This document shows positions 25,405 to 46,586 of a stretch of DNA of 64,000 nucleotides, piece by piece (the first letter of the stretch is position 1; every line of letters starts with the position of its first letter). The position numbers and the translations under genes were made by a program. Source of the stretch: Clostridium sp. (GTDB taxonomy: Bacteria; Bacillota; Clostridia; Clostridiales; Clostridiaceae); assembly GCF_047718555.1 (NCBI RefSeq), contig NZ_JBDNRK010000011.1, forward strand, positions 26,209-90,208, read 5' to 3'. The notes beneath the pieces were generated by a model that was given only the letters and a program-made list of their open reading frames with translations, did no database searches and was not told the DNA's origin.

Positions 25405-25851
25405 AATATCATCTCCAATCTTGACATTAAATTATTTATTATTATTAAATTCTTCAATATATGCTACTTTTAATTATATGATAAATTATATTACATAATA
25501 ATACAATATTTGTTATTAATAAATTTTTTCTAATATTCACATAAATTTTAAACTTAAAAAATAATGTTATTAAAATTTAAATTTAAATCATAAAACTATT
25601 ATAGTAAACTTTTATTAAATATTCTATAAAATTATTTAAATTTATATATATATTAATAAAATTTTACAAATGTTTTACCACATTAAGGCACTTTTATAGC
25701 TTTTATGTAATTTTTATGTAATTTTTGTCATTTAGTAGAACTTCTTTGTACTGTCACCCATAAATAAAGTTCTATATATAAGATAAGCTTTTTGCTGCAA
25801 ATTTAAATATTCACTTTATAAAATATTTAAATTAAAAATACAATAATATAA

Positions 25852-25895
25852 AAAAGCTGATGTTTTTAGCTCCTAAACTAAAAATATCAGCTTTA
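25852..25895 (-). terminator. Terminator downstream of the second flagellin gene
   Basis: AAAGCTGATGTTTTTAG / CTAAAAATATCAGCTTT inverted repeat. Confidence 0.75.
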
Positions 25896-25936
25896 AACTT
25901 CTATATGATTGATTAAAATCAATAAAATACTACATC

Positions 25937-26809
25937 TTATCTAACTCGACTTAATATATTTAATATGTCCTGAGGAAATTTGTTTGTCTGTACCATCATC
26001 GCTATGCCTGCATCTACCAATATACCTGATTTAGAGTATTCCATTATTTCAGTAGCTATATCTGCATCACTTATACTGCTGTCTGCATCTTGAATCTTAT
26101 CAGATATTTCATTAGTGTTATTAAAACTATCATTGAATCTATTCTCTATTCCACCATAAACACTTCTAGCATGTACTACATTCTCTATAGCTGAATCCAC
26201 TAAACTAAGATTTGCATCTACAGAATTTTTAGATACATCTACAGTATCTAAAGTATTCCCTGTGGAATCCTGCATACCTGTTGTAACATTAAATCTTGGT
26301 ATAACAACACTATCTCCCGGATTTGCACCTACTGCTGCAGTTATTGTGGAGGCTGGATTTTTATTGTCATAAGGCACTCCACTTGTTGGTGAACTGGCAT
26401 TCAATAGTTTAACACCATTGAATTCAGTATTGTTTGCTGTATTATTAATATCCTGTTTTATCTGATCAATTTCCAGCTGAATATTTTTCTTATCTTCATC
26501 TGTGATCCCCGCTGCCCCAGAAGATACAACAAGTTGCCTCATTCTTTGAAGATCATCACTTATATTGTTCATACCACCTTCTGCTGCCTGCAACATACTT
26601 ATTCCATCCTGTGAATTTTTTGCCCCAGCTTGAAGTCCACGTATTTGCATATTCATTTTTTCACTTTTAGCCATAGCATTGGGGTCATCCTGTGCACTAT
26701 TTATTTTCTTCCCTGAACTTAATCTATTTAAAGCTCCGCTTTGATTATTAAGGTTTTTTGTATATGCATAATATATATTTAATGATGCTAAGTTATGACT
26801 TAATCTCAT
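25937..26809 (-). CDS. Short flagellin (290 aa), second flagellin paralogue
   Basis: LNRLSSGKKINSAQDD, LQRMRQL, TEFNG, ISDADIATEIMEY. Confidence 0.92.
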   Translation of the reverse strand: MRLSHNLASLNIYYAYTKNLNNQSGALNRLSSGKKINSAQDDPNAMAKSEKMNMQIRGLQAGAKNSQDGISMLQAAEGGMNNISDDLQRMRQLVVSSGAAGITDEDKKNIQLEIDQIKQDINNTANNTEFNGVKLLNASSPTSGVPYDNKNPASTITAAVGANPGDSVVIPRFNVTTGMQDSTGNTLDTVDVSKNSVDANLSLVDSAIENVVHARSVYGGIENRFNDSFNNTNEISDKIQDADSSISDADIATEIMEYSKSGILVDAGIAMMVQTNKFPQDILNILSRVR

Positions 26810-26847
26810 TTTATCAACTCCACTTAAAATGTTTTTTACTTTCTATA

Positions 26848-26875
26848 ATTATCGAAGAATTTAAATGAAGCTTTA
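26848..26875 (-). promoter_or_regulatory. Sigma-28 promoter of the short flagellin
   Basis: Minus strand TAAA-N16-TCGATAAT. Confidence 0.75.
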
Positions 26876-26921
26876 TACCACTAGAGTAAAATTTTTAATT
26901 TTCCAAATTAACGCCATATAA

Positions 26922-26945
26922 TTCCAAGTCACAGTTACCCTAGTG
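26922..26945. repeat. Palindromic island site, copy 1 (flanks B.X)
   Basis: TTCCAA-GTCACAGTTAC-CCTAGTG; 21/22 identical to 41078-41099. Confidence 0.8.
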
Positions 26946-28139
26946 CAAGATTTTTGCCAACGGAGTGAGCTTGCTACTCTCTTCACCTTCCATTTCTAAC
27001 TTAAATCCATTTATCTCTACATCTTCACTTAATTCAATTACAAGGCATCTAGTACCATTTTTATTAACAACTTGTTTAACTGAACTTAAATCTCTTGGAT
27101 TAATAATTATACTAGTATCTTCATTTTCAATTTTTATGGATTTACTTTTAAAATCTGGAATTATATTTTTTACCTTAAACTCGTAATCTCCTCCACAGAT
27201 TTCTTCAAAAGAACTTTCTAAAACTTCAGTATTCTCTATTCCACTATCTTCTAAAACCCTCTTAATTTCTTTCATATTCATAGTAGGTTCCTCTTCGTCC
27301 ATACTATCTTCTAATTTTTCATTTATTTTTTCATAAATTTCCTGCATAGCATCAGCTTTTATTTTATCACCAATTACATCATTCAATATAGCATTAAATC
27401 TCTCTTTTTCTTCTACAGCAGTCTGTTTTATACTACAATTTAAAACCTCTTCAACAAATTTCAAATTCAATTGTTTTGATTTTGAAGAATAATATACAAC
27501 TTTATTTACATCCATATTTCCATCACTAAAACTAGGAAACATAAATCCATCTAAAGGTGAATTTAAATTTATTGTAGTATCTAAGGCAGAATTAGGTTTA
27601 AAGGCCCTTTCTTCATAGTCAAATTTCAAAACTCTTTTAGGAATATCTACTTTGTTTATACTACATAAAATGAACTGGATAGCTTGTACAGAATCTTCTA
27701 TTGATTCATCTATTTCTTCTCTTCTTTTCTTGCTTCCTTTGTAGTACTCAGCTTTTACAAAATTTATTACTATATCTGTGTCATATGTATAGTTTTGAGA
27801 TATTTTTTCTACTATTTTATCAGCATATTCTGCTACCCTTTCTTCTGAACTCAATGCCTTATATAATACATTTTGTGTACTTTCTACTAAGTTTTCACTG
27901 TTAAAATCCAATTCAAATATTTTTGTATCTATGGTTCCAGTAAGAATCTTTTTAAAATTATTTAAATAAAGTTCCTTTTTCTCAATTTCTAACATATCAA
28001 AATAACTAAGTTCTTTTTTTATAATTTCATTATTGTCTTTTTTTAAATATATACTATATACTTCTTTTATAGACATCATATAGCTGTTTAATTTAAATTC
28101 TTTTCTTAAGTCAGCCAAATCTTTTTTATTCATAATCAT
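26940..28139 (-). CDS. DUF4317-like protein
   Basis: MNKKDLADLRKEFK.. N-terminus, LDGFMFPSFSD, acidic C-terminus; family recognised from memory. Confidence 0.7.
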   Translation of the reverse strand: MIMNKKDLADLRKEFKLNSYMMSIKEVYSIYLKKDNNEIIKKELSYFDMLEIEKKELYLNNFKKILTGTIDTKIFELDFNSENLVESTQNVLYKALSSEERVAEYADKIVEKISQNYTYDTDIVINFVKAEYYKGSKKRREEIDESIEDSVQAIQFILCSINKVDIPKRVLKFDYEERAFKPNSALDTTINLNSPLDGFMFPSFSDGNMDVNKVVYYSSKSKQLNLKFVEEVLNCSIKQTAVEEKERFNAILNDVIGDKIKADAMQEIYEKINEKLEDSMDEEEPTMNMKEIKRVLEDSGIENTEVLESSFEEICGGDYEFKVKNIIPDFKSKSIKIENEDTSIIINPRDLSSVKQVVNKNGTRCLVIELSEDVEINGFKLEMEGEESSKLTPLAKILH

Positions 28140-28343
28140 TACCTCAGCTTTCTCTTTAGGATAATTACATCCTAATAATATAAATTTAAGACTCCAATTT
28201 ATAATTTTATGCCAATAAATATTATTCTACTCAAAAGCTATAAATCCTCTAAAAATTCTATTTGCCTAATACAATGTCCGAATTATAATGCTAATGACCC
28301 TGAGATGATTGTTAAACTAAATTTTCATCCCAAGGGTCATACT

Positions 28344-29943
28344 TTAAGAGTAAACTTCCACAATTTTCTTTTCCTTTTCATTAATTTTAACCGTTACTTC
28401 TTCTACCTTTCCTGCCACTCCTTTAACTTTTCTAAAATCAAATATTAAAAGATAGCCTTGTTCTAACCCATACTGCTCTAAATATTTGCCTAGTTGTACA
28501 AGTCCTTTTTCATGATACTTATCTCCACGCCATATTTTCAGCTCCAATATATACATCTTTTTATTATAAGTTATAGCTATATCAAACCTTTTCTCTTCTC
28601 CACCTTTTCTCTTCTCCACCTTTTACTTCCTTAAAGGCAAAACCTGTGCCATTTATTATAGGACTTAAAAAAGCAAGAAATAATAATCTTCCATCTTCTT
28701 CTAAAAAGCCTTCTCTTCTCTCTGAATACTCATGTTTCATGAAATACTGAAACTTTAATAATACTTTAGCTATATCCAGGCTTCCATCTTTTTTTATAAA
28801 TTCTGATCTTTCATTGTAAAAACCTAAATTCGTAGAAGTCTCTATTATAGAACTCATATAATCGTATATTTTTTGTTCGTAAATTCTATTATGAAGCTTT
28901 AATTTTCCCTGCTCATCCTTAAATATTCCATATATTACACCCAAGTTTATAGTAGAATTATCTTTATTATAAGTAATTTCACTACCATCTACCGTTATCT
29001 TCTTTATCAATTCTTTTAAAGCAATATTATTTTCTAGATTTTTGATCAAACTATCAAAATTAGTATTGCTATCTTTTAAAAATTCTTTAACAGCTCTGTC
29101 CATATATTCCTTATCCCACTTTAGTTGTTTTATATCCATAATTTTTTCATCTATTATTTTACAAAGCTTACTCACAAGAAAAGGATATCCTGAAGTGTAA
29201 AAATAAAGTCTATCTGAAAAATACTCTTTATCTAATTTTACTCCTTTATTTTTTATGTAATCTTCCAACATAGTACCTATTTCTTCCTTTGAAAAACTCA
29301 TATCCACATCAAAATCTGAAGCTATATTCCAAGGACTGTTGTATTTGTGCTCTTCATCTGATCTTATCTTTAGTTTTAAACTCTTTACATCATGTACACC
29401 TGCTAATATTACACTATGAAAAGTCTTATCTTTCCCCGAATTTCTAAGTAAATATTTGTTTCTCAACATACCTAAAAAGCTCAAAAACATCTGATTGTTA
29501 CTGCTTTTATCTACTTCATCTATCATAATTACTACTTTTTTATTAACTTTTATAATGAACTTTGTTATAGCTCTTGATAAATCATTAAATGTCTGAATTT
29601 TATTCTTTTGTTCTTCCAAAAAGTCAGCCAAATCTTCATAATGTAAAAATAAGCTATCAGCCACTATTTGTAAAAATACTTTTACAAAGCGCTGCTCTTC
29701 TTGAAAAATCAAATCTCCTACACCTTCAAAGCTTATTGATATAGTTAAGTACTCAATATTTTTATCAAGGTTTTTTTCAAGCATATATAAAGTGGTTGTT
29801 TTTCCGTACTGCCTTGGTCTGTTTATTATAAAATACTCTTCATTTTCTATGAACTCCATTATATCATTTAATTTTTCTGATATATCTACCATATAATGCT
29901 TCTCTGGTATACATGTCCCCGTAACATTAAATTTCTTTTCCAT
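28344..29943 (-). pseudogene. AAA-like ATPase fused to a PD-(D/E)XK nuclease-like domain, frameshifted by a 16-bp tandem duplication
   Basis: RPRQYGKTT Walker A, IDEVD Walker B. Removing one ACCTTTTCTCTTCTCC copy restores FKEVKGGEEKRFDIAITY..ILELK..G..QL..YL. Confidence 0.88.
28586..28617. repeat. Perfect 16-bp tandem duplication causing the frameshift
   Basis: ACCTTTTCTCTTCTCC at 28586-28601 and 28602-28617. Confidence 0.95.
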
Positions 29944-30067
29944 TATTCTCTCACCCCACTTCTTGTATATATTTTACCACATTACATAACTCTTTAAACA
30001 CAAAAAAACTGCAAAATATAAAGTCTACAGTTTCCTCATTTTCATCCATTACATCAGCTCATTCACA

Positions 30068-30105
30068 TTTACTATTTTTTTCAAGTAACAGTTATCGTTA
30101 CAAAT
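30068..30105. repeat. Palindromic island site, copy 2 (flanks A.Y)
   Basis: TTTACTATTTTTTTCAA-GTAACAGTTAT-CGTTACAAAT. Confidence 0.7.
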
Positions 30106-30107
30106 AA

Positions 30108-30269
30108 GGCATTGAAAAAGGCAAAGAAGAAACTACCGTGAATCTTTTGAAGCTTGTAATCGATACAGAAATTATAGCTAAAAGCACAGGTTTAAGTTTA
30201 GAAAAAATACTTGAACTTAAGAAAAAATATGAAAACCAGAAGTTTAAGGATAATAAAAATAGAGACTAA
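30108..30269 (+). pseudogene. C-terminal remnant resembling Rpn/PD-(D/E)XK transposase-like protein tails
   Basis: GIEKGKEETTVNLLKLVIDTEIIAKSTGLSLEKILELKKK; no start codon, preceded by TAA, begins about 12 bp after the site core. Confidence 0.65.
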
Positions 30270-30299
30270 CATTGAAATATCAATTCTTTGTTAGTCTCT
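30261..30299. terminator. Hairpin between the convergent Rpn remnant and the Y1 transposase
   Basis: AGAGACTAACA / TGTTAGTCTCT 11-bp stem. Confidence 0.65.
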
Positions 30300-30321
30300 T
30301 TGAATATTAGCCTAATAACAT

Positions 30322-30876
30322 TTAACTAAACTTACTAATTGCAGACTCAACAAATCCCTTATACAATTCTCTATTCTTGTCTTTAAAATATGATAATATT
30401 TTATCACTACAACTTAATTTTTCTTTTTCATTACCAATGTACATAGAATAACTACTCCATTTATAAAATTCTGGTTTTTGGACCATCTTTGCTCTTACAG
30501 GATTTAAATGAATATATCTACTGGCCTCTAATACATAATTATCTTCCTGCATTATTTCTGCATTATACCTATCTTGAAATAAATGTCCTACATAATTATA
30601 TTTGTTATTAAAGTTTCTTGCATAAGACTTATTTATTCGGCTCATTAAATACCATATATGTTTTTCATTTGTTTTTATTTGAAGATGAATATGATTTGTC
30701 ATTAGAGTATACACAATAAGCTCATAACTATTCTCATAATAATCCATAGCTTCTTTCAAGTTTTCCAAATAAACTAAATAATCCTGATCATCTTTAAATA
30801 TATCACTTCTCCTATTCCCCCTACAGGTTACATGATACATTGCGTTAGGATACCATAGTAATTTTTTCTTTGGCAT
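30322..30876 (-). CDS. REP-associated-type HUH (Y1) tyrosine transposase (RAYT-like), apparently intact
   Basis: YHVTCRGNRR, MTNHIHL (HUH), GHLFQDRY, YIHLNPVRA, YKWSSY. RBS GGGGAG precedes MPKKK at 30876 (track start 30894). Confidence 0.88.
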   Translation of the reverse strand: MPKKKLLWYPNAMYHVTCRGNRRSDIFKDDQDYLVYLENLKEAMDYYENSYELIVYTLMTNHIHLQIKTNEKHIWYLMSRINKSYARNFNNKYNYVGHLFQDRYNAEIMQEDNYVLEASRYIHLNPVRAKMVQKPEFYKWSSYSMYIGNEKEKLSCSDKILSYFKDKNRELYKGFVESAISKFS

Positions 30877-32363
30877 TGAATTCTCCCCATTCACTTTATT
30901 CTTATAGGAAGGTACGAAAAGAAGTCGCTAATTATTAGTGTTTCATTGGAAACTGCGTTAGTTACTAGGCGTATCCCCGCTTGAAGCCGCACTCTGAGTA
31001 ATCGGTTTGTAGATTGCATGAGAGTTAAGTACCTAATGGCATTGCTTTACGCAGAAGCAATACTGGGTTAGGGGAAAAATGGAAAGTATAAACGTAGAGT
31101 TGAACCTTTGTAATCTTCGTCAAAGAAGATAAGCGTACTGCGAAGTAACAAGCTTAATATGGATAGAAAAGATTGAATCGTCCTCCAATCGTGCAGTAAC
31201 CCATATATCCATCGGAGTAGAGAAGGATGCTTACCCATTTGAATCTAATATTAGTGGAACTTGGTAAGCCCTTTGTGTTCCTCGAGAGAGGTAGGGTAAT
31301 CGTAAGAAAACTACAATACCAGAGAGCAAAGGAGTGTGGAGAAAGCGAATGCCAGTAGGACGAAAGTCCAGGGGAAAGAATAACCTGCTGGATAGGGTTT
31401 GATAACCCGCTCGAAAGAGGGCAGACTTCCACATGGTCATCAACACGAAAAAAAACGTAAAGAAGAATCTTTTTAAGGAGAAACATGTTTTGAAAACTAT
31501 TAAAAAATTTAATACGTCGGCTGTTTCTCCACATATACAGGACTGGACGCTAATTAACTGGAAGAAAGTATGTCAATATGTGAAGAAACTTCGCCAACGG
31601 ATTTTTCGTGCCGAACAGTTGGGACAGAAAAGAAAAGTAAGAAAGCTTCAAAGACTAATGATTAGAAGTAATGCTAATTTGTTAATGTCAATTAAAAGAG
31701 TTACACAAAATAACAAAGACAAACGAACTGCTGGTGTTGATGCTGAGATTATACTCACTTCAAGTGACAGATTGAGATTATATAACCTTCTCAAGGGGTA
31801 TAATATTAAATATATTATACCTAAGCCAGCAAAAAGATTATACATACCCAAGAAAAATGGTAAAATGCGTCCTTTAGGAATACCGGTCATAAAAGATAGG
31901 ATATTTCAAAATATTGTTAAAAATGCTTTGGAGCCACAATGGGAAGCGAGATTTGGACCTTCTTCATATGGATTCAGACCTAAGCGAAGCGCCCAGGATG
32001 CTATTGTCAACCTATTCACTAAGCTATCATCTAGGAGTACAAGGCAATAGATATTTGAAGGTGACTTCAAGGGATGTTTTGATAATCTCAATCATCAATA
32101 TATTATGGATAGTTTAACGGGATTCCCTGCTAAAGAAACTATATATAAATGGTTAAAAGCAGGATATGTTGATAATAACTCATTTAATAATACAGATTCT
32201 GGCACTCCTCAAGGTGGTTTATGCAAAGCTTCGCATAATCCGCCTTATGCAAAGAAAGTAATTATGCAAAGTAAACTTTGAAATATCGCATACTTACTGA
32301 CTCTCTTTTTGGTTTACTTTGCATAATCTTCGTCAATGATAATAGAGTGAAAACTCAAAATTA

Positions 32364-33618
32364 TTGAAGGAGGTATTTCTTTTGAAAAAGAAACCACTTA
32401 ATGAATTATTACAGGACTTAGAGCAGGAACTGCTACGATTAGGCTACACAGAGGGTTCTATGAAATTTTATCATAACCGCTGGGAAAAAATCATAAAATT
32501 CGCAGAAGAGCGTAATGAGACTTATTACTCAGAACAACTGGGGATAGACTTTGTTGAGAAACATTTTCAGATTTTTAAAAAGGATTTCGATAAAACCTTG
32601 TGCCAGAAAGATACTCAAGAACTTCGCATCATCAGAATGATTGGAGATTTCCAACTCCATAATACCGTTTTAAGGCGATACTATAAACACAAACAACTTT
32701 TGATTGACCCTTACTATATGAAGTATAAGTAGTAATTTCAAAAATCACTGCAAATCCAAAGATTACTCAAAGGTGACTGTTGATCACTACGTAAATCAAG
32801 CAGAGCGATTTATGGATTACTTGCTTTCGCAAGGCATATATGATTGTCGTAATATGAGTCTCTCAATTATTCATGGCTATATCAAAACATTAGCTGGATA
32901 TACTTACAAAACTGTGGAACAGAATATCTGCTCTATCCGTGCATTTTTAAGATATCTTCTGGAACAGGACATTTTAAAAACTGATTTAGCTGCAAAAACA
33001 CCAATGGTTCAAGCCCGTAAACAGACAAGAATTCCCTCTGTGTGGACAAAGGAAGAACTAAGCGCACTTATAGGTGCTATTGACCGTGGTAGTCCAAAAG
33101 GGAAAAGGGATTATGCCATTATCCTTCTAGCTTGTATGTTGGGACTTAGGGTTACTGATATCAAGAACCTGACTTTTGACTGCTTTCACTGAGAAGAAAA
33201 AAGGCTGATATTTACCCAGTCCAAGACAAGAGAAACAGTTATACTCCCAATTCGATCCGAATTGGGATGGGCTGTCATTGATTATCTGAAATATGGTAGA
33301 CCGAAGGTTGATTCATCCATCATATTTGTAAGGCATATGGCGCCATTCCTACCTTTTTCAGAAGGAGACCACTTAGCTCAACTAATACAAAATTATATGA
33401 GAACAGCGCATCTGCCTACGTTGAAAAAGCGTCGTGGTATGCACTCTCTCCGCCATACGGCTACATCGAAAATGCTTGAGCAGGGCACATCTCTAGTAGT
33501 CATTTCAGATATCCTTGGTTATACAGATACTGACTCAACATCAGTTTATTTGAAAGTGGATGTAGCTAAACTGAAGGAATGTTGCCTGGATACTGCGGAG
33601 GTAAGTGCCCATGAGTAA
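32364..33618 (+). pseudogene. RIT recombinase A (frameshift near 32720; TGA at 33190-33192)
   Basis: Three ORF pieces join into one integrase: RDYAIILLA..LGLRV.DI, HSLRHT, ISDILGY. Confidence 0.88.
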
Positions 33619-34597
33619 TTATATTTTCAAAGGACCATTTGCAGAGAATATAGAAAACCACGTAAAATTAAAACAGGCTATCGGTTATAAGTACAATACT
33701 GAAGCAGATCATCTATTACGGTTCTCTACATTTACTGCTAAAAAGTATCCTGAAGCAAAAGAGCTTACAAAGGAAATTGTTATGGACTGGTGCTCGAAAA
33801 AGAGTTATGAGGCACAGGCCAATCAGTGTTCAAGAGCTTCTATACTACGGCAGTTTGCTATATATATGGATAGCATAGATATGAATCCATACATAATTCC
33901 AAAAGGCTATTTTCAAGTTGAAGAACACTATATTCCATATATTTATACTGTAGATGAATTACAGCGTTTTTTCAATGAGACAGACAAGTGTCATTATGTC
34001 AACGAATGCCCATATCGACATTTAATTATGCCTGTATTCTTCCGAATGGTTTACTCATGCGGTCTTCGTTCTTCGGAAGCAAGACTCCTTAAAGTAGAAG
34101 ATGTAAATCTTGACACAGGGGTACTAACCATTCAGCATTCCAAGAAGGATAACTGTCGTTTTGTTCCAATGTCTGATGAATTAACAAGATGCTGCCGCGA
34201 TTACTCCAATAATGTACATATGACGTCAAAGCGAAGCGATTTCTTTTTTCCGGGATTGAATAATAAGCCTATGACTATAGTTAATGTATATCATAACTTT
34301 CGACGATTCTTATGGAAGGCTGGTATTTCCCATGGAGGTCGCGGCAAAGGACCTCGTGTTCACGACTTCCGCCATACTTTTGCATGCCACTGTCTTAAAC
34401 AATGGGTTCTCCAAGGAAAGGATCTTTCGGTTTACCTTCCAGTGTTAAAGACATATATGGGACATGATTCCTTTGAGGAAACTGCATATTATCTTAGAAT
34501 GACTGCTGATGTATTCCCGGATATATCAATTAAGTTGGAAGGAAGCTTTCCTGGTATTATTCCTAAGTTAGAAGGTGCTGACCATGAGACCAACTGA
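33611..34597 (+). CDS. RIT recombinase B (tyrosine recombinase), intact
   Basis: YSCGLRSSEA, HDFRHTFA, YMGHDSFEETAYY. Confidence 0.9.
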   Translation: MSNYIFKGPFAENIENHVKLKQAIGYKYNTEADHLLRFSTFTAKKYPEAKELTKEIVMDWCSKKSYEAQANQCSRASILRQFAIYMDSIDMNPYIIPKGYFQVEEHYIPYIYTVDELQRFFNETDKCHYVNECPYRHLIMPVFFRMVYSCGLRSSEARLLKVEDVNLDTGVLTIQHSKKDNCRFVPMSDELTRCCRDYSNNVHMTSKRSDFFFPGLNNKPMTIVNVYHNFRRFLWKAGISHGGRGKGPRVHDFRHTFACHCLKQWVLQGKDLSVYLPVLKTYMGHDSFEETAYYLRMTADVFPDISIKLEGSFPGIIPKLEGADHETN

Positions 34598-35597
34598 TTT
34601 TGCAATCCACCTTACAGGATTTCTGTCCGAATATCTTCCAAAACAAAAGAATGCAAGTAAGAATACGATAGTATCATACCGAGATACTTTCAAGCTATTG
34701 ATTAGATACTGTAATGAGCAGAGAAATATACATGTTGAAAAGCTAAATCTAAGCATGCTAACGCATGAATTGATTATAGGGTTCCTTGAATGGCTAGAAA
34801 CAGATAAAAAATGTAGAATTTCTACTAGAAATCAACGCCTTGCGGCTATACATTCCTTTTTTCGCTATGCACAGTACGAGGAACCAGAAGGAATTCTTCA
34901 TTTCCAAAAGGTAATTTCTCTGCCGATTAAAAAGGCACAAAAGTCATCGATACCCCATCTAACACCTGAAGCTATGCAAGTCTTATTATCTCAGCCAGAT
35001 AAAACTACTGCAAAAGGACGTAGAGATTTAACGCTTTTAGATATCCTTTATGATTCCGGATGTAGGGTACAGGAACTTGCTGATCTTAGGGTACGTGATG
35101 TTGTATTGAGCAATCCGGCAGCTCTTATTCTTACTGGAAAAGGAAATAAAATTCGCAGAGTTCCTCTTATGAAAAATACACTTACTTTATTGGAACACTA
35201 CATTCAGGAGAATTCCCTTAATAAACTTTGGAAAAGCGATTATCCTTTGTTTACAAACAAACAACATAACAAGCTTTCTAAAGAGGGAATTGCATATATT
35301 ATTTCTCAGCATGTACATTCAGCAAGAAGGATCTCAACGATAGTGCCCGAAAAAGTAACACCTCATATGTTTCGGCATAGCAAGGCAATGCACCTTCTTC
35401 AAGCTGGTGTCAATCTAATATATATACGATATTTCTTAGGTCATGAGGACATCAAAACCACAGAAATCTATGCCAAGTGTGATACCGAATTAAAACGTCA
35501 GGCCATTGAGAACGCATATCCTGATTTAGTTGACAGCAACTTACCTGATTGGAGTGAAGATTCAGCGTTGCTTGATTGGCTTTCCAAGTTAAAGTAG
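34584..35597 (+). CDS. RIT recombinase C (tyrosine recombinase), intact
   Basis: YDSGCRVQEL, GKGNKIRRVP, PHMFRHSKAMHLL, FLGHEDIKTTEIYA. Confidence 0.92.
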   Translation: MRPTDFAIHLTGFLSEYLPKQKNASKNTIVSYRDTFKLLIRYCNEQRNIHVEKLNLSMLTHELIIGFLEWLETDKKCRISTRNQRLAAIHSFFRYAQYEEPEGILHFQKVISLPIKKAQKSSIPHLTPEAMQVLLSQPDKTTAKGRRDLTLLDILYDSGCRVQELADLRVRDVVLSNPAALILTGKGNKIRRVPLMKNTLTLLEHYIQENSLNKLWKSDYPLFTNKQHNKLSKEGIAYIISQHVHSARRISTIVPEKVTPHMFRHSKAMHLLQAGVNLIYIRYFLGHEDIKTTEIYAKCDTELKRQAIENAYPDLVDSNLPDWSEDSALLDWLSKLK

Positions 35598-37089
35598 TCA
35601 GATATTATGCAAAGTAAATCCTACAACAATCCATCTAAATCAGTGCTTAGCTAGGTTTACTTTGCATAATCATCAACTTTGCATAAGGATAGCTTGTCTC
35701 ACCTCCGCTAGCCAATATAGCACTACATGGTATGGAAGAAGAACTGGGCATTAGATACTATCTCAATAGAGGAAGACGTTATTTAGCTAGGAATTCGGTT
35801 GGAGTAACAATCTATGCTGATGATTTTGTAGTTGTATGCAAAACAAAAGAAGAAGCCACAAATATGTATGAAAAGCTTAAACCATATCTTGATAAAAGAG
35901 GATTAAAGCTTGCAGATGATAAAACAAAAGTTACACATATTAGTGAAGGATTTGATTTTCTTGGATTTAATCTGAGACAGTGTAAAACTAATAGTAAGAT
36001 GCAACTACTAATAAAACCATCAAAGGCAAGTGTAAAAAAAGCCAGGGAAACGATATAAGAATGTTTTTACACAAATGCTAGGGAAATCAGTTGGAGACCT
36101 AATTGCAAAGCTGAACCCTATAATTAGGGGCATAGGAAACTACTGGTCAAGTCAAGTTGCAAAGAAGATATTCGAAAATCTGGATATGTATATATGGATT
36201 AATACAAGAAAGCATTTGAAACATTTACACCACAACAAGCCATTTAAATGGATTTACAGAAAGTACTTCAAAGCTGATCATACGGGCATCAGCAGAGCTA
36301 AATGGATATTGACAGACCCTCATGATAACAAAACTCAGTTATTTAAGATGAGCTGGATACCGATAGTAAGACATGCTGTAGTTAAGTATAAGAATAGTCC
36401 TGATGATGCCAATTTAAAAGAGTATTTTGAGAAAAGAGACAAAAAGGAGTTCATAAGGGATAATGTTTTGAGTAGAAGGAAAATGGCAAAACGCAGCAAT
36501 TATAAGTGTAGAGTATGTAAACAATCATTAGTTGGAGCAGAGCCTTTAAAGATTAATCAAATTGTACCTCGCATATTAGGCGGTGATGAACTTTATGATA
36601 ACTTAGAATTGTTACATCAAAGTTGTCAGAAACAACATCAATCACTACTTGTAAAATACGGTGGAGGAAGACATTTAACAGCAATAATAAAATACTCCCA
36701 TAATAATCAAGTAGAACTCAACAGCCAAGAAGGATACAGATTAATGAAAGAGACATTTAAGAAATTTAAATACCAACTTGTTTGAGATAAAAGATGGCTT
36801 GAGCCGTATGTTTTGTAAGGAACAAGTACGGTTCTTAGGCGAGAAAGAAGTAGTAATCCTTCCAACTTAGCGGGAACGTACATAGATTTATGTAAATCAA
36901 ATCTATGTACGTTCTTTTTATGTATATATAGCTGGTAATAATGGAAATAATATCATTAAAATATTGTGAGAGGAGTAGAAATATATGAAGATTTTAGTTT
37001 TACCATAGTGTTAGTATAAAAGTGTAGACACAAAGGAATAGATTTACAGAAGTGATAAAATAAAAATAAGGGAAGGAAAGTGTCTACAG

Positions 37090-37359
37090 ATGGGAAGAAC
37101 AGTTAAAAGCTATACAGAAGAATATAAGAACACAATAGTTGAATTATTTAACAATGGGAAAACGTATAAAGAACTTAACAGCGAATATGGAGTACCAAAA
37201 AGTACTATAAGACAGTGGGTAAATAAAGTAGAGAAAAGAAATGATGGAACTGAAGAAAAAGAGAATAATATAAAAGAAATACTTAAAAGAGATGCTCTTC
37301 TTCAAGAGGAGAATGAAATATTAAAAAAAGCATTGTCCATATTCGCAAAGGCAAAATAG
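37090..37359 (+). CDS. IS3 OrfA (HTH)
   Basis: YTEEYK..IVEL..GK....L..EYGV..STIRQW; A7G slippery run at 37323-37330. Confidence 0.9.
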   Translation: MGRTVKSYTEEYKNTIVELFNNGKTYKELNSEYGVPKSTIRQWVNKVEKRNDGTEEKENNIKEILKRDALLQEENEILKKALSIFAKAK

Positions 37360-38258
37360 AAGAAATATATAAGTTCATTGATATCTACAAGCAATATTAC
37401 TGCAGAAAAATAAAAAAGTACTTCAGCATAAAGATAATGTGTAAAACTCTTGGAATAAGCAGAGCTGCATACTATAAGCATATGCATAGAAAGCCATCTA
37501 AATGGGAGAAAGAAGATAAAATACTGGACAAAAGAATATATCAAGAATATAAGGATTCTAAAGGAATATACGGAGCACCAAAAATTTGCGAAAAATTGAT
37601 GAAAAAAGGTTTTAATCCAAGTCTTAAAAGAGTTCAAAGAAGAATGAAGAAGATGAATATAAAATCCATTATAATAAAGAAATGGAAAGCATACAATACC
37701 AGCAAAAAAAGAGTAGAGCAAAAAGAAAATCTAATAAAAGAAAACTTTACAGCCAGTACAATAAACGAGAAGTGGCTTACAGATATAACTTACATTTATA
37801 CACTGGAAGATGGATGGTGTTACCTAGCATCTGTATTTGACTGCTATAGTGCTAAGATAATAGGATGGTGCTTTTCAAAAAATATTGATGCTAGTATGGC
37901 TTTACAAGCTATTAAGAATGCCGTAAATAGTCAAAACCCTAATTACGAAACTCTTATAATTCATAGTGATTTAGGTTCACAATATACAAGCAGTGAGGTT
38001 GAAGGATACTTTAATGAATTAGGCATACGTCATTCTTACAGTAAAAAAGGCTATCCATATGATAATTCACCTCAAGAATCATTTCATGCTTCACTTAAGA
38101 AAGAAGAAAAATTGATGAATAAATATAAGAATTTTTATAAAGCTAAAATATGCATTTTTCAATATATTGAAGCATGGTACAACAGAAAAAGAATACATAG
38201 TAGATCAGGATTTATTACTCCACAACAATATGAAGATATTGCTAGAAAATCTGCTTAA
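37356..38258 (+). CDS. IS3 OrfB DDE transposase (in the -1 frame relative to OrfA)
   Basis: WLTDITY, HSDLGSQY, DNSPQESFHASLKKE, WYNRKRIHS. Confidence 0.92.
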   Translation: MEEIYKFIDIYKQYYCRKIKKYFSIKIMCKTLGISRAAYYKHMHRKPSKWEKEDKILDKRIYQEYKDSKGIYGAPKICEKLMKKGFNPSLKRVQRRMKKMNIKSIIIKKWKAYNTSKKRVEQKENLIKENFTASTINEKWLTDITYIYTLEDGWCYLASVFDCYSAKIIGWCFSKNIDASMALQAIKNAVNSQNPNYETLIIHSDLGSQYTSSEVEGYFNELGIRHSYSKKGYPYDNSPQESFHASLKKEEKLMNKYKNFYKAKICIFQYIEAWYNRKRIHSRSGFITPQQYEDIARKSA

Positions 38259-39753
38259 ATGTTTATAAAAAAAGTGTCTACACTATTGACATAAATCCAC
38301 CAGATATAGATTTAAATAAAGAAGTTAATAAGTGCAAAAGCATGGAAGATTTAGTTGGAAAAAACAGATTAATGCAGCGATTGTTTGGGAATATTATTCA
38401 GCAATTTTTAGAAGCTGAAATGGAAGATCAAAGTATGATAGAGATTTAAATGATGATAAAAATTATAGAAATGGTTATACACCTAAAAACGTTAAGACTA
38501 GTTTTGGTGATGTCAAAGTTGATGTACCTAGAGATCGTAGATCTGAGTTTGAACCTAAAATTGTTAAAAAATATGAGACTGTATGCAATGAACTTGATAA
38601 AAAAGTAATTGGACTCTATGCAAGAGGTATGCCTGTAGATGACATAAAGTCTGAAATTGATGAGCTTTACGGGGTAGATATTTCTCCTGCAATGATCTCT
38701 AAGATAACTGATAAAGTCATGAATACAGCTATTGCTTGGAAAAATAGGGCGTTAGAGCCCGTTTATCCTATTGTATATATGGATGCTATACATTTTAAAG
38801 TTAAAGAAGATCATCAGATTATAAATAAAGCTGCTTATATATGTATGGCTTTGGGCCTGAAAGGTTATAAAGACATCTTAGGCATATGGATTGGTGAACA
38901 AGAAAGTGCTAAGTTTTGGCTGTCAGTATGTAATGACCTCAGAAATAGAGGCGTTAAAGATATAATTATAGGATGTATGGATGGTCTTAAAGGACTACCT
39001 GATGCCATTAAGACTGTTTTCATGATATAAATATACAAAGCTGTATAATTCATCAGATAAGAAACTCTATAAAATATATTGCATCTAAAGATAGTAAAGA
39101 GTTTATGAAAGATCTTAAAAATGTTTATAAGGCTGTTAATGAAAATATAGCGGCTAACGCCCTGTAAACTCTCGAAGAGACGTGGGGAGATAAATATTCT
39201 ATAGTAATAGATTCATGGAATAATAATTGGGAAAATCTATCTACTTATTTCAATTTTCCTCCGGAAATAAGAAAAATAATATACACTACTAATGCTATTG
39301 AGGGATTCAATAGACAATTAAGAAAATTTACTAAGATAAGAACTACATTTCCTACGGATAATTCTTTGAGAAAAGCTCTTTACCTTGCTACAGAACAAAT
39401 TATGACTAAGTGGACTTCTCCATCACCTAATTGGGCTTATACTTTAGCTCAGCTAACTTTGATGTTTAAAGATAGGCTTGAGCAATATATATAAACAATA
39501 CAAATAAAAGCTTGTACTATTTTATTTATGAATAAAAATGCTATTTTTACAAATAATAATAAGAAATAAAAGCTATATAAACTCATTCTTTAGTATTATC
39601 ATATAATTTAAAAATTACTACAGGAATAATTTCCCATAGTAATTTCCAATTTAAAAGTAGCTAGTCTATTTTATTTTACACAAACTTATGAACGTTCTCA
39701 ACTTAGCCGACAATTATTGACATAGTATTTATTTTTAAACCGGTCATTTTATT

Positions 39754-39780
39754 TTCCAAGTCACTGTTACCCTTGCAAAT
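39754..39780. repeat. Palindromic island site, copy 3 (flanks B.Y)
   Basis: TTCCAA-GTCACTGTTAC-CCTTGCAAAT. Confidence 0.75.
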
Positions 39781-39823
39781 TCTGTTTTTACTATCCAATG
39801 CTATAACTTGCACTGTTAATTCC

Positions 39824-39859
39824 TTTACTATTTTTTCCCAAGTTACAGCTACCCTAGTG
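39824..39859. repeat. Palindromic island site, copy 4 (flanks A.X)
   Basis: TTTACTATTTTTTCCCAA-GTTACAGCTAC-CCTAGTG. Confidence 0.75.
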
Positions 39860-39957
39860 TTCTCAGTCTTTGAAGATTTACCATCCGCAACTAATGATTC
39901 TTCAAATTCTATTACGATTTTTTCAGCAGCTACTTCAATAGTAGTATTAGCATCCAT
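39860..39957 (-). pseudogene. N-terminal stub resembling a tyrosine-recombinase SAM-like domain, truncated at site copy 4
   Basis: IEFEESLVADGKSSKTE resembles integrase starts (F..YL..DGKS.KTI.SY); the frame then runs into the site sequence. Confidence 0.55.
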
Positions 39958-39962
39958 TGCTA

Positions 39963-40308
39963 TTACTCCAAATACTTTAGCAATTCTTTGGGTGTTAGTT
40001 CCAGTGATATCAGTAGGCTTATGCTGTAGTCACTGCTAAGAAGCATTAGGGAGTTAGTATATTTGTCACCATTGGAGCAGGTTATTACATCTACATACTC
40101 TGGTAGGTTACTTTCCATGCTTTCTAATAGCTTTCAAATCCTCACCTGTTTCTGCTATTAGAATGTATCCACCTAAATCATGTTCTGCATCTCTTTGATT
40201 TCCGTAGTTTTCATCAAGAATTGCTGCAATCTCCAATGCTTTTGCTACTACCTCCGCTGGTAGATTTTTTAGAAGCCCTTCTTCTCTTTTATTAGCTATC
40301 ATTATCAT
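39963..40308 (-). pseudogene. Hypothetical protein, frameshifted near 40110
   Basis: ..LDENYGNQRDAEHDLGGYILIAE.. continues in another frame as NLPEYVDVITCSNGDKYTNSLMLLSSDYSISLLISLELTPKELLKYLE*, ending 5 nt before the stub ATG. Confidence 0.7.
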
Positions 40309-40796
40309 GGTTATCTCCTCCTTGAATTCTATTTCTATTATTCAAGGTAATAATATATATTTGATTATTCCATGATTACAGGTACAAAAAAATAGCCTAA
40401 GATAGATTTTACTCCATCTTAGGCTTTTACCAGTTCACTGCATTATTTAGATTATGCAGTGAAGATTTTATTACTGATTTTCCGTTAGTCATTGTACTGC
40501 AATAGTTGTTACTACTGCAACCACTACAGAATAGTTTTGCAGTGAACCCAATTTTTCTACTCTAAAAATCGGCACTATCAGCACTATTGTAATCCTATTT
40601 TTTACAGTGTCAACAATGTCGGTATTTTAGGCTTAGAGAGGTGTTCCCACAACATCTTCAATTCACTTCCACTGACTACCTCTATTTTAGAGGACAGTAG
40701 GGCTAATAAGGCTGTGCCCTGATTGCCCTACAAAATACAAGTAGCCTTCATAGCAAAAATGAGCGTCAATAGCCTTTTTTCTATAGTCACTGATGC

Positions 40797-41051
40797 TCAT
40801 TCAAGTATTTTTCCATCTTCTATTTTTCTGATTTCTCCATCTATTGCTTTAACCTGTGCTGCTAAGTCGTTTAGCCTAGCATTTAGTTCTTCCAATTCAC
40901 CTACAGTAAGATTATCATGCTTAGACTTCTCTGCTAACTCTCTCATTTGCAGCAGCTTATCTTCAATAATGTCCAACATCTTCTGCCTGTACTGAACCCA
41001 CTGCAATTCCTTTTCTAATTGTTGCTTTAGTCCTTCTTTTTCATTCATCAC
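40797..41051 (-). CDS. Small coiled-coil protein resembling the flagellin N-terminal D1 helices
   Basis: MLDIIEDKLLQMRELAEKSKHDNLT..LEELNARLNDLAAQVKAI aligns by eye to FliC ALNETTSILQRMRELSVQASNDTLN..RGQIQKEVNQLTSEIDRI. Confidence 0.7.
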   Translation of the reverse strand: MMNEKEGLKQQLEKELQWVQYRQKMLDIIEDKLLQMRELAEKSKHDNLTVGELEELNARLNDLAAQVKAIDGEIRKIEDGKILE

Positions 41052-41064
41052 ATCAACTCATTCA

Positions 41065-41099
41065 TTTACCATTTTTCCCAAGTAACAGTTACCCTAGTG
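41065..41099. repeat. Palindromic island site, copy 5 (flanks A.X; perfect core)
   Basis: TTTACCATTTTTCCCAA-GTAACAGTTAC-CCTAGTG. Confidence 0.8.
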
Positions 41100-41120
41100 G
41101 GGTGCGAAGCAGCCTACTTA

Positions 41121-41678
41121 CTACTTCAATCTTTTTAACTTTTTCTCAATTTTCTCAATTTCATTTTTCATTTCTTTAATTTGTTCATTAATGTAAATAT
41201 TTTCGGTTGCACTCCACCATTTCAATAATTCATCTTTATTATCCTCAACTTTATCTTTATATGATTTAATAGGGTAAATAGAATCCAAATTAGTATAAAT
41301 CTTATGAAAACTTATTAATTTGTCATATTCTGTAGCACTAAGTTTAGCTTTTAAAATATTAATGTAAGCTATCCATTCTTTATCTGAATATATTGTATAC
41401 ATCCCAGTTAATACTATACTAACAACACCATCAATGCAATTTTCCTTTAAATAATTAATATTTTGAGCAGCTTGTGTGTGAAAATCTTCTGATACTTTAT
41501 TTATTCTATTTATTTCATGAAAAATTATATTTTTAGATTGTATGCTATTTCTTCTATTATTCATGATGTTTGTTATTTTAAAAGTAATAAATGAAATAAT
41601 AATTGGAAGGAAAAATCCTGAAATAAATAGTTTATAAAAATCATTGCTTAGTATTACAACTAATACATTTTTCAACAT
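41121..41678 (-). CDS. AT-rich hypothetical membrane-anchored protein
   Basis: 185 aa, N-terminal hydrophobic segment, good RBS (GGAGG); family not recognised. Confidence 0.65.
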   Translation of the reverse strand: MLKNVLVVILSNDFYKLFISGFFLPIIISFITFKITNIMNNRRNSIQSKNIIFHEINRINKVSEDFHTQAAQNINYLKENCIDGVVSIVLTGMYTIYSDKEWIAYINILKAKLSATEYDKLISFHKIYTNLDSIYPIKSYKDKVEDNKDELLKWWSATENIYINEQIKEMKNEIEKIEKKLKRLK

Positions 41679-41755
41679 TTTAATCCTCCATCTAACTTAA
41701 AGAAGCCAGAGTTGTTCACCCTGACTCCTTAATAATCCTATTGTAAGTTTATCAA

Positions 41756-43120
41756 TTATCTTAATAATTGAAGAACTTGTTGTGGTTGTTGGTTAGCTTG
41801 AGCAAGCATAGCTTGAGCAGCTTGGCTAAGAATGTTGTTCTTAGAGAATGTTGACATTTCTTTAGCCATGTCTACGTCTCTGATTCTTGATTCGGCTGAT
41901 GTCATGTTTTCACTTGATGTTCCTAAATTAGCTATAGTATGCTCTAATCTATTACTATAAGCACCTAATTTAGCTCTTTCATCTGATACTTTGTCAATAG
42001 CTGTCTGTATAGTCGTAATAGCAGCTGTAGCTTTAGTAGCTGATGTTACATCTATATTATTTACACCTAAAGCAGCAGAACGCATATCATTTACATTTAC
42101 ATTTATTGTTTGGCCTTCATTAGCTCCTATTTGGAAAGTTAAACTATTATCTGCTACTGTTAATTCAAATGTATCGGCATTTGCTGTTCCTGCAGTATCT
42201 ATTTTTGTACCATCTAAACTTCCACCAGTTAAAGTAACTTGAGCACCATGCTTACTATCTGAAATAACTGCTGTAACACCAGCAGGTAAAGAAGTTATAT
42301 TAGCATTTGTACCAGCTGTAGATGCTCCTACAACAGTTGCTGCAGTTCCTGTAGCAGTAAGGGTATATCCTGAACCGTAATCATTAGCTGTAAAAGTAAG
42401 TGCACCTGCTGCTACAGAAGTAGTAAAACCAATTTCGCTTGATTTTGCATTTATAGCTGCAGCCATATCTGCTGCAGCTGTGTTTTGAGCAAAATTAAAA
42501 GAAACACCATTCAACACTAAGTTAGTTGCACCTGCTGCTGTAACACCTGCAACAGCTGCACCTGCTGCTACTGATGTTTTAGTTGCTGCAGCAGTCACTG
42601 TAATACCAGCATAAGTACCACCAATAGCTAAATCACCAGTGTTTAAAACATTTACTTTATTTCCAGTAGCTGTAAAAGCTGTTACTTCAGCAGCTTTGCC
42701 TGAAGAACCATTCAATAAAGTTTTGGTGTTGAATTCTGTAGTATTCCCAATTCTATCAATTTCACTAGTTAACTGATTTACTTCTTTTTGTATTTGTCCC
42801 CTGTCTGTATCATTTAGTGTATCATTTGAAGCTTGAACTGACAACTCTCTCATTCTTTGAAGAATGGAAGTAGTTTCATTAAGCGCACCTTCAGCAGTTT
42901 GCACTAATGAAATACCATCTTGTGCATTACTTGAAGCTTGGTCTAATCCTCTGATTTGACCTCTCATTTTTTCAGATATAGCTAATCCTGCTGCGTCATC
43001 TGATGCACTATTAATTCTAAGACCTGAAGAAAGTTTTTGCATTGATTTGCTTGCATTTGTAGCATTGATATTTGCATTTCTAATAGCATTGTTAGCTGCT
43101 AAATTGTGATTAATTATCAT
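41756..43120 (-). CDS. fliC: Major flagellin (454 aa)
   Basis: MIINHN..LSSGLRINSASDDAAGLAISEKMRGQIRGL; SRIRDVDMAKEM; QQPQQVLQLLR. Confidence 0.97.
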   Translation of the reverse strand: MIINHNLAANNAIRNANINATNASKSMQKLSSGLRINSASDDAAGLAISEKMRGQIRGLDQASSNAQDGISLVQTAEGALNETTSILQRMRELSVQASNDTLNDTDRGQIQKEVNQLTSEIDRIGNTTEFNTKTLLNGSSGKAAEVTAFTATGNKVNVLNTGDLAIGGTYAGITVTAAATKTSVAAGAAVAGVTAAGATNLVLNGVSFNFAQNTAAADMAAAINAKSSEIGFTTSVAAGALTFTANDYGSGYTLTATGTAATVVGASTAGTNANITSLPAGVTAVISDSKHGAQVTLTGGSLDGTKIDTAGTANADTFELTVADNSLTFQIGANEGQTINVNVNDMRSAALGVNNIDVTSATKATAAITTIQTAIDKVSDERAKLGAYSNRLEHTIANLGTSSENMTSAESRIRDVDMAKEMSTFSKNNILSQAAQAMLAQANQQPQQVLQLLR

Positions 43121-43144
43121 AATAAATTCCTCCTTGATTTTAAA

Positions 43145-43163
43145 GTGGACATCCTTGTTCCAC
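43145..43163 (-). promoter_or_regulatory. CsrA-binding hairpin in the fliC leader
   Basis: GTGGA-ACAAGGATG-TCCAC: GGA loop matching the CsrA consensus just upstream of the AGGAGG RBS, as in Bacillus hag; csrA and fliW are in the window. Confidence 0.75.
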
Positions 43164-43404
43164 TGTTTTTTATTTATAGTTAAGCTCTTTGAGCCTACTA
43201 ACTAGATTTTGTTGCTTTTCAACTTGTACTTGTTGACATCTTGTTGCATCTTTGCTGAATTTCATCATCCAGTGTTATCAATGCTTCATGGGCATTGATA
43301 ACAAAATGCTGACTTTCAACACTTCGGCAACCTTCTACCATCATAAAATAAATTAGTTCTCTATAACTTCTATTTTTTATTTTCATCTTTTGTTCTATAT
43401 TTAC

Positions 43405-43432
43405 TTTATCGTATATCTAATATTTTACTTTA
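43405..43432 (-). promoter_or_regulatory. Sigma-28 promoter of fliC
   Basis: TAAA-N16-ACGATAAA, about 285 nt upstream of the ATG. Confidence 0.7.
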
Positions 43433-43491
43433 TAACTTTTTCTAATTTTCTATAATATTTTTTATCTTATATTTTTTTATTTTAAAACTTT

Positions 43492-45682: not shown

Positions 45683-45705
45683 TTAAATCTCTCCTTCCTT
45701 TTATT

Positions 45706-45875
45706 CAGTTAAGAGTTAAAAGGGAAGAGTGAAGAGTTATGGATAATTTTTCTCCGCTTCACTGCGGAAAATTTAAATTAAAGATTTTTAGCACAGCTAA
45801 AAATCATCCTACACTTCTAACTCTTAATTCTTAACTCTTAGCTATTTCTCTCTTTAATCTTTTAACTCTTAATTG
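45706..45875. repeat. Heptamer-arm palindromic dispersed element with two internal hairpins (copy A)
   Basis: 7-bp periodic arms (AGTTAAG / CTCTTAA) flanking TCCGC-ttcact-GCGGA and ATTTTTAGC-aca-GCTAAAAAT. Confidence 0.8.
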
Positions 45876-46566: not shown

Positions 46567-46586
46567 AGAAACACCCCCAAGAAATG

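Follow-up and report, generated by a model that had tools for sequence, protein, structure and literature searches.

A RAYT-like HUH-Y1 gene of Clostridium flanked by direct copies of a 30-nt non-palindromic site

A 64-kb stretch of a Clostridium sp. contig (NZ_JBDNRK010000011.1; the whole stretch is hereafter the window) carries in its flagellar region an intact gene, Y1, for a HUH-Y1 protein that resembles the RAYTs (tyrosine transposases associated with REPs, repetitive extragenic palindromes). Comparison with other Clostridium loci supports a module of about 0.68 kb, made up of a 30-nt site, a leader of ~65 nt, the Y1 gene and a second 30-nt site, the two site copies being in direct orientation. 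Hypervariable regions that adjoin flagellin genes or lie between them also contain the site, always on the gene strand, and there it sets small accessory genes apart from one another. On balance we think it most likely that the Y1 enzyme recognises and cuts the 30-nt site, because guilt by association, the fixed geometry, the loci in which the pair around Y1 is the sole pair and the co-variation of gene and repeat all point that way.

Results

The Y1 reading frame on the minus strand is open from a GTG at 30894, or from a conserved ATG at 30876, to a stop at 30322. The ATG is the start common to all homologues and has a Shine-Dalgarno (SD) sequence, GGGGAG, 7 nt upstream. The protein matches the Pfam family Y1_Tnp (PF01797; E 4e-11, 43.5 bits against a cutoff of 23) and has 1775 database relatives; among the matches listed these are 145-231 aa long and mostly from Clostridium. 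No close relatives were found on plasmid or phage records. Motif conservation was judged on an alignment of 22 homologues, in which the protein is full length (184 aa in a family of 180-197 aa) and keeps every residue that is invariant among them, including H62, Y121, N125 and P126. Its HUH motif is N61-H62-I-H64-L, with H62 invariant and H64 nearly so, and Y121-I-H-L-N125-P126 forms the Y---NP motif, the signature that defines class 2, the RAYT-like class (Quentin et al. 2018, PMC6006769).

A single-sequence search of the PDB sequences found no relative of the protein, and a profile and a fold search were needed. The family profile pairs the HUH motif with EHMHC of the E. coli TnpA_REP structure 4ER8, weakly (E 0.034), and aligns Y121 with the first tyrosine of YIYINPV in the same protein. 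Judged by its position in the sequence, Y121 is the predicted single catalytic-type tyrosine, on the C-terminal helix. An AlphaFold (AF2) model of the protein (pLDDT 88, pTM 0.86) gave 4ER8 as its top Foldseek match (E 2.6e-8, TM 0.68/0.75), followed by the ISDra2, IS608 and IS200 transposases, and all known Y1 transposase structures were matched at E < 1e-3. With the NCBIfam RAYT equivalog model NF047646 the protein scores 62.4 bits, below the cutoff of 80. The Pfam match, the HUH and Y---NP motifs and the 4ER8 fold together point to an intact RAYT-like HUH-Y1 enzyme. The initial annotation of this DNA had described the gene in the same terms. It had also remarked that the gene has no TnpB partner, and among the window's open reading frames (ORFs) we likewise saw no TnpB-like ORF beside Y1.

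The site was first proposed as GTAAC-N-GTTAC, a form that did not survive comparison. The literal sequence has a single exact match in the window, and a variable gap raises this to two, no more than chance would give; an empirically derived core was therefore used instead. The window and Clostridium loci together supplied 79 non-redundant copies, whose consensus is (CAC)TAG followed by GGTAACTGTGACTTGG-gAAAAAtAGTAA. These copies define a conserved block of ~30 bases, with a sharp 5' edge and a conserved 3' tail after the core. The block is not palindromic, both of its pentamers being GTNAC with variable middle bases. It carries stop codons in all three frames, and the upstream ORFs that end in it include DUF4317 in the window, Y1 in several species and flagellin at locus L141 (L numbers denote the contig loci compared). 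The flagellin ORF of L141 (375-1214) stops within the site, its last arginine and stop codon being the AGG TAA of the core, which indicates that the very 3' end of the flagellin gene has given way to a site followed by Y1.

A 17-mer search of the window found five copies of the site against 0.08 expected, all on the gene strand and all within 14 kb; copies elsewhere are clustered too. Short tandem arrangements of the form core-(1-3 nt)-CACTAG-core recur, and inverted pairs exist and are rare (L064; L008 6237/6350). A scan of genome contigs with a 16-mer containing two degenerate positions was unspecific, the matches listed being mostly single chance hits in unrelated phyla, and it left six usable Clostridium loci. 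Neither the core sequence nor such site arrays were found in the literature searched.

We examined the association between gene and site in both directions. For the forward test, 12 contig loci, the window included, were selected solely by Y1 protein identity. The initial annotation had suggested looking for enrichment of the motif near close homologues, and it was found: seven of the 12 loci (the window, L001, L008, L010, L159, L164 and L165; 65-100% identity) have a positioned site 91-107 nt upstream of the ATG; at 66% identity or less a homologue may have no site at all. All the loci with at least 75% identity are positive. Both flanking copies are present in five (L001, L008, L010, L164 and L165), with the second copy at or within ~30 nt of the stop codon. 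C. pasteurianum (L001, 84%), which has 14 sites in 12.5 kb, has one ~98 nt upstream of Y1 and one over the stop codon. C. autoethanogenum (L010, 78%) has exactly two sites in 16.5 kb, 93 nt upstream and right after the stop, and in C. grantii (L008, 75%) the two lie 94 nt upstream and 32 nt downstream. The 70% homologue (L159), which like the 65% one (L164) comes from a metagenome or assembly contig, sits in a housekeeping context and has the upstream site only, and at L162/163 (71%) and L011 (63%) the sites are eroded.

L164 (65%) and L165 (66%), both amid flagellar genes, have only two repeats each, in 9.8 kb and 12.6 kb respectively, and these flank Y1. With L010 this makes three loci in which the only copies are the pair around the gene. 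The repeats of the 65% and 66% homologues are diverged (GGTAACAGTKACCTRG; GTGACAGGYACYTGTAAAA) and match between the two flanks of their own gene. A flank-repeat search that used no motif recovered direct pairs above shuffled controls; the best inverted matches between Y1 flanks in the same search did not exceed shuffles. Around the module of C. autoethanogenum, scans for sigma-70 promoters and for terminators did no better than shuffles and placed no promoter in the leader.

The 61% paralogues (L012 8001-10140 and L160 6001-9221) lie immediately upstream of comM (yifB) and dprA, and the L160 copy overlaps comM. ComM and DprA process single-stranded DNA in transformation, and this neighbourhood hints at a host-related role for that branch.

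For the reverse test, a metagenome scan with the core and part of its tail returned 26 loci. Y1, whole or as a fragment, is present in eight of them and its leader alone in one more, which amounts to ~7 independent loci; in five site-selected loci the site starts exactly 93 nt before the Y1 ATG. A Pfam scan of 120 ORFs within 3 kb of sites in site-selected loci gave Y1_Tnp as the commonest family. Next came nucleotidyltransferase/HEPN toxin-antitoxin proteins, glycosyltransferases, PDDEXK_2 and flagellin, and neither Phage_integrase nor Resolvase was among the 25 commonest families listed. By per-replicon counts a Clostridium genome typically has one or few such Y1 genes, and given these numbers the enrichment of Y1 at site-selected loci is large. 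Decayed or truncated Y1 copies retain the upstream site, as at L060, L136 and a 5' remnant at L001 3248-3325.

The window copy of the module is interrupted. The initial annotation had proposed joining 30911 to 39712, which places a core upstream of Y1, and the C. pasteurianum locus confirms the join to the base: L001 5895-5963 corresponds to window 39779-39712 and L001 5964-6539 to window 30911-30338, and not a base is gained or lost. Within the conserved leader the insertion falls between AATAATT and CTTCC. With the two parts joined, the core at 39771-39756 begins 95 nt upstream of the Y1 ATG.

The proposal that two sites bracket Y1 stands on this upstream side. On the downstream side the core at 30096-30081, 225 nt beyond the Y1 stop, heads a remnant of the 84-aa coiled-coil gene described below and belongs to another module than that of Y1. 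Homology of the window Y1 to its orthologues stops at codon ~179, and in the orthologues the 3' site is at the stop codon. The 3' remnant of an Rpn-like gene, on the strand opposite to Y1, lies between Y1 and this downstream core. As homology ends near codon 179 and is followed by the Rpn-like remnant, the gene's own 3' site has been replaced. The reading frame of the window copy is thus intact and its module crippled, with the 5' site and distal leader 8.8 kb away and the 3' site lost.

Bracketing could in principle be the chance outcome of a dense repeat array. The window has five sites in a backbone of 5.4 kb, any gene there would lie between two of them, and bracketing in the window alone therefore means little. 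The comparative data refute this explanation, since the same geometry at the same distance is found in many genomes, including loci with just two sites. It is from these other genomes that the weight of the bracketing comes.

Signs of turnover at sites can be seen in C. pasteurianum, where 12.5 kb hold one intact Y1 and one remnant. An isolate and a metagenome contig of this species are 99.2-99.8% identical over the locus and differ by three indels of more than 50 nt. Two of the three terminate exactly at a site edge. The first is 54 nt long and ends at +16 of a core; the second, 281 nt with two further sites and a cassette remnant, runs from +19 of one site to the CACTAG prefix of the next. 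Comparisons of flanks and these two indels give no consistent single cut position.

The 8.8-kb insertion at 30912-39711, which had been taken for a single intron, is a stack of several mobile elements. It comprises a group II intron with nested recombinase genes, an element of the IS3 family and a truncated one of the IS256 family. Since the intron runs antisense to Y1, splicing out of the Y1 transcript is impossible. At Rfam gathering thresholds nothing was found over the window, the intron's domain V/VI falling just under threshold. In the trio of tyrosine-recombinase genes, which resembles RIT elements, the first gene is in three ORFs and the other two (330 and 340 aa) look intact. The two ends of the insertion are of different kinds, an intron 5' end (30912) and an IS256-type inverted repeat (39711), and the junction is nonetheless seamless. 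At the edge of the C. grantii site array, L008 12162-14205 holds two group II intron reverse transcriptase (RT) genes that are kin of the window intron, which shows that such introns recur in these regions.

The intron and the IS3-family element are separated by about 125 nt of DNA that could be assigned to neither and that contains a perfect hairpin. The hairpin (36876-36916; GTACATAGATTT...AAATCTATGTAC, then GTTC) is just past the intron 3' end. In C. pasteurianum its 15-mer AAATCTATGTACGTT is found again, directly repeated on either side of an 80-nt insertion polymorphism (L001 9306-9320, with the corresponding part of L148). The hairpin may represent a small mobile element or else a motif targeted by introns.

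Other genes follow the site at a distance of their own. The 84-aa coiled-coil gene, which has no family assignment, lies directly after sites in several species (window 40797-41051, with a remnant at 30031-30080; L001 2599-2841 and 5655-5852; L060; L163) and has its start codon ~43 nt from where the site begins. Behind other sites 5' stubs of this gene persist, and after Y1 and the AAA-ATPase it ranks as the second most frequent cassette. Small YjfB_motility genes (31-60 aa) also recur behind the site (L011 1990-6394, L150, L153, L163 740-919 and L165 6612-6791), directly after Y1 in L163 and L165. Where the core is intact their ATG is likewise ~43 nt from the site start, with an SD sequence in between.

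This spacing is what might be expected if the 30-nt sequence were a cis-acting expression element within operons, for instance one serving RNA processing or stability or one that binds a regulator (CsrA, say) just ahead of the ribosome-binding site. Duplication and ordinary homologous recombination, and no dedicated enzyme, would then account for the mosaicism. The site always has the same orientation as the genes, the SD sequence of the YjfB-type and 84-aa genes comes right behind it, and ~18 nt separate its GGGA motif from the GGA in the SD sequence. These are flagellar loci, and one has a csrA gene. This explanation nevertheless seems to us improbable. No Rfam family matches the window, and the best-conserved part of the site, GGTAACTGTGAC, has neither a GGA nor structure. 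The site frames non-flagellar genes in non-flagellar contexts (L008, L159), and the copy at 26924-26939 lies upstream of, not inside, the sigmaD-type promoter region of the second flagellin gene. The copy at the Y1 stop codon and the indels that end at site edges would also be left unexplained.

The window is a flagellar region of low GC content (about 32%) with its genes on the minus strand, and each of its two flagellin genes has a sigmaD-type promoter of its own (TAAA-N15-nnCGATAA). Between them lie a 185-aa ORF, the 84-aa coiled-coil ORF, small ORFs, Y1, a gene for an AAA-ATPase with a PD-(D/E)XK part and a DUF4317 gene. In the AAA-ATPase_like gene (28344-29943), whose PD-(D/E)XK part is C-terminal, a frameshift leaves two ORFs, one of 453 aa and one of 91 aa; its C. 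pasteurianum orthologue is a single 527-aa ORF with 88% DNA identity. On the gene strand between a 66-aa ORF and the 84-aa ORF, ~400 nt (40330-40720) hold no ORF of at least 50 aa and gave no Rfam match. Two intergenic stretches of ~140 nt 3' of fliD (45703-45839 and 46584-46726) are direct repeats of each other, 88-92% identical, 881-887 nt apart and unrelated to the site family. Table 1 collects the features.

Table 1. Features of the Y1 module, the sites, the insertion and the flanking genes (window positions)
Feature	Position	Strand	Basis or remark
HUH-Y1 (RAYT-like, class 2) gene, intact, 184 aa	30322..30876	-	Pfam, motifs, fold
Proximal Y1 leader CTTCCTATAAGAATAAAGTGAATGGGGAGAATTCA, including SD	30877..30911	-	Alignment to orthologues
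Distal Y1 leader: site tail + ...TCAATAATT	39712..39755	-	Alignment to orthologues
Site core GGTAACTGTTACTTGG	41078..41093	-	Weak hairpin before it; heads 84-aa coiled-coil gene 40797-41051
Site core GGTAGCTGTAACTTGG	39838..39853	-	
Site core GGTAACAGTGACTTGG	39756..39771	-	5' site of Y1 module
Degenerate site core GATAACTGTTACTTGA	30081..30096	-	Followed by 5' remnant of 84-aa gene at 30031-30080
Site core GGTAACTGTGACTTGG	26924..26939	-	DUF4317 stop (TAG) in its CACTAG prefix
Rpn-like (Transposase_31) gene, 3' remnant	30106..30241	+	87.5% identical to C. pasteurianum gene end
Group II intron, antisense to Y1	30912..36875 (3' end approximate)	+	5' GTACG at 30912
Intron RT/maturase/HNH ORF, two pieces	31433-32050 (RVT_N/RVT_1); 35732-36785 (RVT_1/GIIM/HNH)	+	
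Intron domains V/VI	36799-36871	+	RF00029, 38.6 bits against gathering threshold 40, E 7e-5
Three tandem tyrosine-recombinase genes (RIT-like trio), nested in intron RT gene	32364..35597	+	
IS3-family element	~37001..38293	+	orfA 37090-37359, orfB 37437-38258; terminal inverted repeats TGTTAGTATAAAAGTGTAGACAC / GTGTCTACACTATTGACA
IS256-family (Transposase_mut) element, 5'-truncated, stop-riddled	38294..39711	+	Right inverted repeat abuts Y1 leader
FliD gene	43964-45682		
Flagellin gene, first	41756-43120		
Flagellin gene, second	25937-26809		

Discussion

If the Y1 enzyme does act on the 30-nt site, it would recognise the site on one DNA strand and cut and rejoin it through its HUH/tyrosine centre, in the manner of the IS200/IS605 TnpA and TnpA_REP proteins. 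This would allow segments between two sites, the Y1 gene included, to undergo excision, insertion or deletion, and the leftovers of such events would be solo sites and tandem sites that are short and empty. The exchange of cassettes may in this way be driven by Y1, as the initial annotation had supposed. In the window Y1 lies on the G-rich strand. This strand is the lagging-strand template here, and it is on that template that IS608-type enzymes act; the placement of the gene is compatible with an enzyme acting on the site, and only that.

Several observations weigh against a Y1 enzyme that cuts the site. An AGTGGG...CCCACT hairpin adjoins only 18 of the 79 sites, which it precedes, and the folding of the sites that flank Y1 does not exceed that of shuffled sequence (z -0.1 to +1.0). 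To our knowledge the structurally characterised Y1 enzymes recognise hairpins, and a site with no hairpin would depart from every Y1 enzyme studied. There is no site at L158 (66%), at L012 (C. scatologenes, 61%) or at L160 (C. estertheticum, 61%), and several positive loci were found through the site and are therefore not counted in the forward test. On the left the two indels end at +16 to +19 of one site, and on the right at -6 or -7 of the site that follows. These are non-equivalent positions, and end-points of this kind in two sites are unlike simple reciprocal site-specific exchange. The assembled contigs of four metagenome runs over window 25500-43500 contain no joints; where they meet the window they give loose ends only, an indication that the site and the inserted elements are present in further copies in the sample. 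Finally, many sites bound unrelated genes with no Y1 in 1-14 kb of sequence, and Y1 is therefore possibly just the most successful cassette.

This last point leads to the alternative that Y1 is a passenger cassette and that the sites are used by something else. The candidates would be a site-specific recombinase encoded at an unlinked locus, a nuclease of the Rpn-like PD-(D/E)XK type, or RecA, for which the 30-nt repeats would be substrates. The genes bounded by sites include toxin-antitoxin pairs and those for the AAA-ATPase, DUF4317, YjfB and the 84-aa protein, and the majority of site-bearing loci have no Y1 in the sequence at hand. PDDEXK_2/Transposase_31 genes do occur near sites (three of 120 ORFs, one gene in L001 and the remnant in the window), and the irregular end-points of the indels would also fit. 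A passenger is harder to reconcile with the three loci whose sole two sites are the pair around Y1, with Y1 as the commonest neighbour of the site, at a fixed 91-95 nt, and with diverged Y1 genes that have diverged, mutually matching repeats. Moreover, tyrosine and serine recombinase families are not among the 25 commonest listed near sites. We regard the passenger explanation as rather unlikely.

A Y1 enzyme acting on its own flanking site has partial parallels among known systems. RAYT or TnpA_REP genes flanked by REPs or REPINs form the REPtrons of E. coli and Pseudomonas (PMC3116915, PMC8266576, PMC6006769). The Clostridium genes are like these in their enzyme class (HUH with Y---NP, 4ER8 as best fold), in having no TnpB, in being flanked by a short sequence that is also found elsewhere and in having repeat variants of their own when diverged. 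REPs are defined as imperfect palindromes that form a stem-loop, have a 5' GT[AG]G foot and usually occur as inverted pairs, and the Clostridium site fails this definition. The description of the sites as REP-like must accordingly be given up: they are non-palindromic, have no GT[AG]G foot and mostly no hairpin, and occur as direct copies. Whereas REPs are dispersed and of high copy number, these sites cluster in one hypervariable locus in the 64 kb of the window and in the contig loci compared, and they bound whole genes. The Y1 protein also differs from REPtron RAYTs in falling under the NCBIfam cutoff (62 against 80 bits).

In TIRYT genes the flanking repeats are inverted and often contain the motif GGGGWSAS (Di Nocera 2013, PMC3733652), whereas the flanks of Y1 are direct repeats of another sequence. 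What the Clostridium genes share with TIRtrons and with RAYT group 1 is the occurrence of RAYT-like genes outside the classic REP hosts, with moderate-copy repeats and no canonical REPs. RAYT group 1 has been reported in Clostridia (Bertels 2017, PMC5581495), nearly all of these genes being assigned to subclass 2.1 (PMC5581495), and a survey of subclass 2.1 saw no REP-like sequence near the genes (Quentin 2018, PMC6006769). Our comparison with subclass 2.1 is by description.

The module also resembles IS200/IS605 elements (IS200, IS608, ISDra2) and PATEs, which are non-autonomous derivatives of these. It is ~0.7 kb long, with a single Y1 gene and similar ends in direct orientation; its orientation is strand-specific, no target duplication is visible, and there are transposase-less units with the same ends. 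It differs from them in its class 2 (Y---NP) protein, in ends that lack conserved subterminal hairpins, in the tandem arrays of cargo genes and in that no identical multi-copy set was seen in the loci compared.

In other respects the loci recall integron arrays and CALINs, with their co-oriented, small, mostly promoterless accessory genes, toxin-antitoxin pairs included, each with one site, and with their short empty units. Group II introns that target attC are reported to sit antisense to the cassettes (PMC7923331), as the window intron does. Unlike integrons, these loci have no IntI, the tyrosine recombinases of the window lying only inside the nested insertion. The attC sites are structured, imperfect palindromes of 57-141 nt, whereas the Clostridium sites are linear and 30 nt long, and the candidate enzyme is an HUH nuclease that is itself carried as a cassette.

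It is tempting to combine these parallels. We propose, tentatively, that Clostridium flagellin loci might contain an integron-like gene-cassette system run by a cassette-borne HUH-Y1 nuclease that would cut one strand of a linear, non-palindromic 30-nt site. Accessory genes, among them toxin-antitoxin pairs and those for small motility proteins and glycosylation, would be reordered, gained and lost through such a system, with enzyme and site co-evolving. This goes well beyond the recognition of the site by Y1 and is considerably more doubtful.

RAYT-like Y1 genes are present in about a quarter of the bacterial species sampled, and their DNA substrate is known for the REP-associated subclasses only. 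The largest RAYT subclass, reported in Clostridia, has no associated repeat in published surveys (PMC6006769). Our comparisons indicate that a clade of such Y1 genes has a precisely positioned, co-varying, non-palindromic repeat, and this repeat can be synthesised and put to direct test. If Y1 does act on it, the substrate range of HUH-Y1 enzymes would widen beyond hairpins. If the cassette system proves true, the repeat would be the first defined DNA substrate for the large and so far function-less RAYT group 1/subclass 2.1. Action of Y1 on the repeat would also explain the gain and loss of genes in the hypervariable flagellin and flagellar-glycosylation regions of Clostridium, including those of the industrial species C. 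autoethanogenum and C. pasteurianum.

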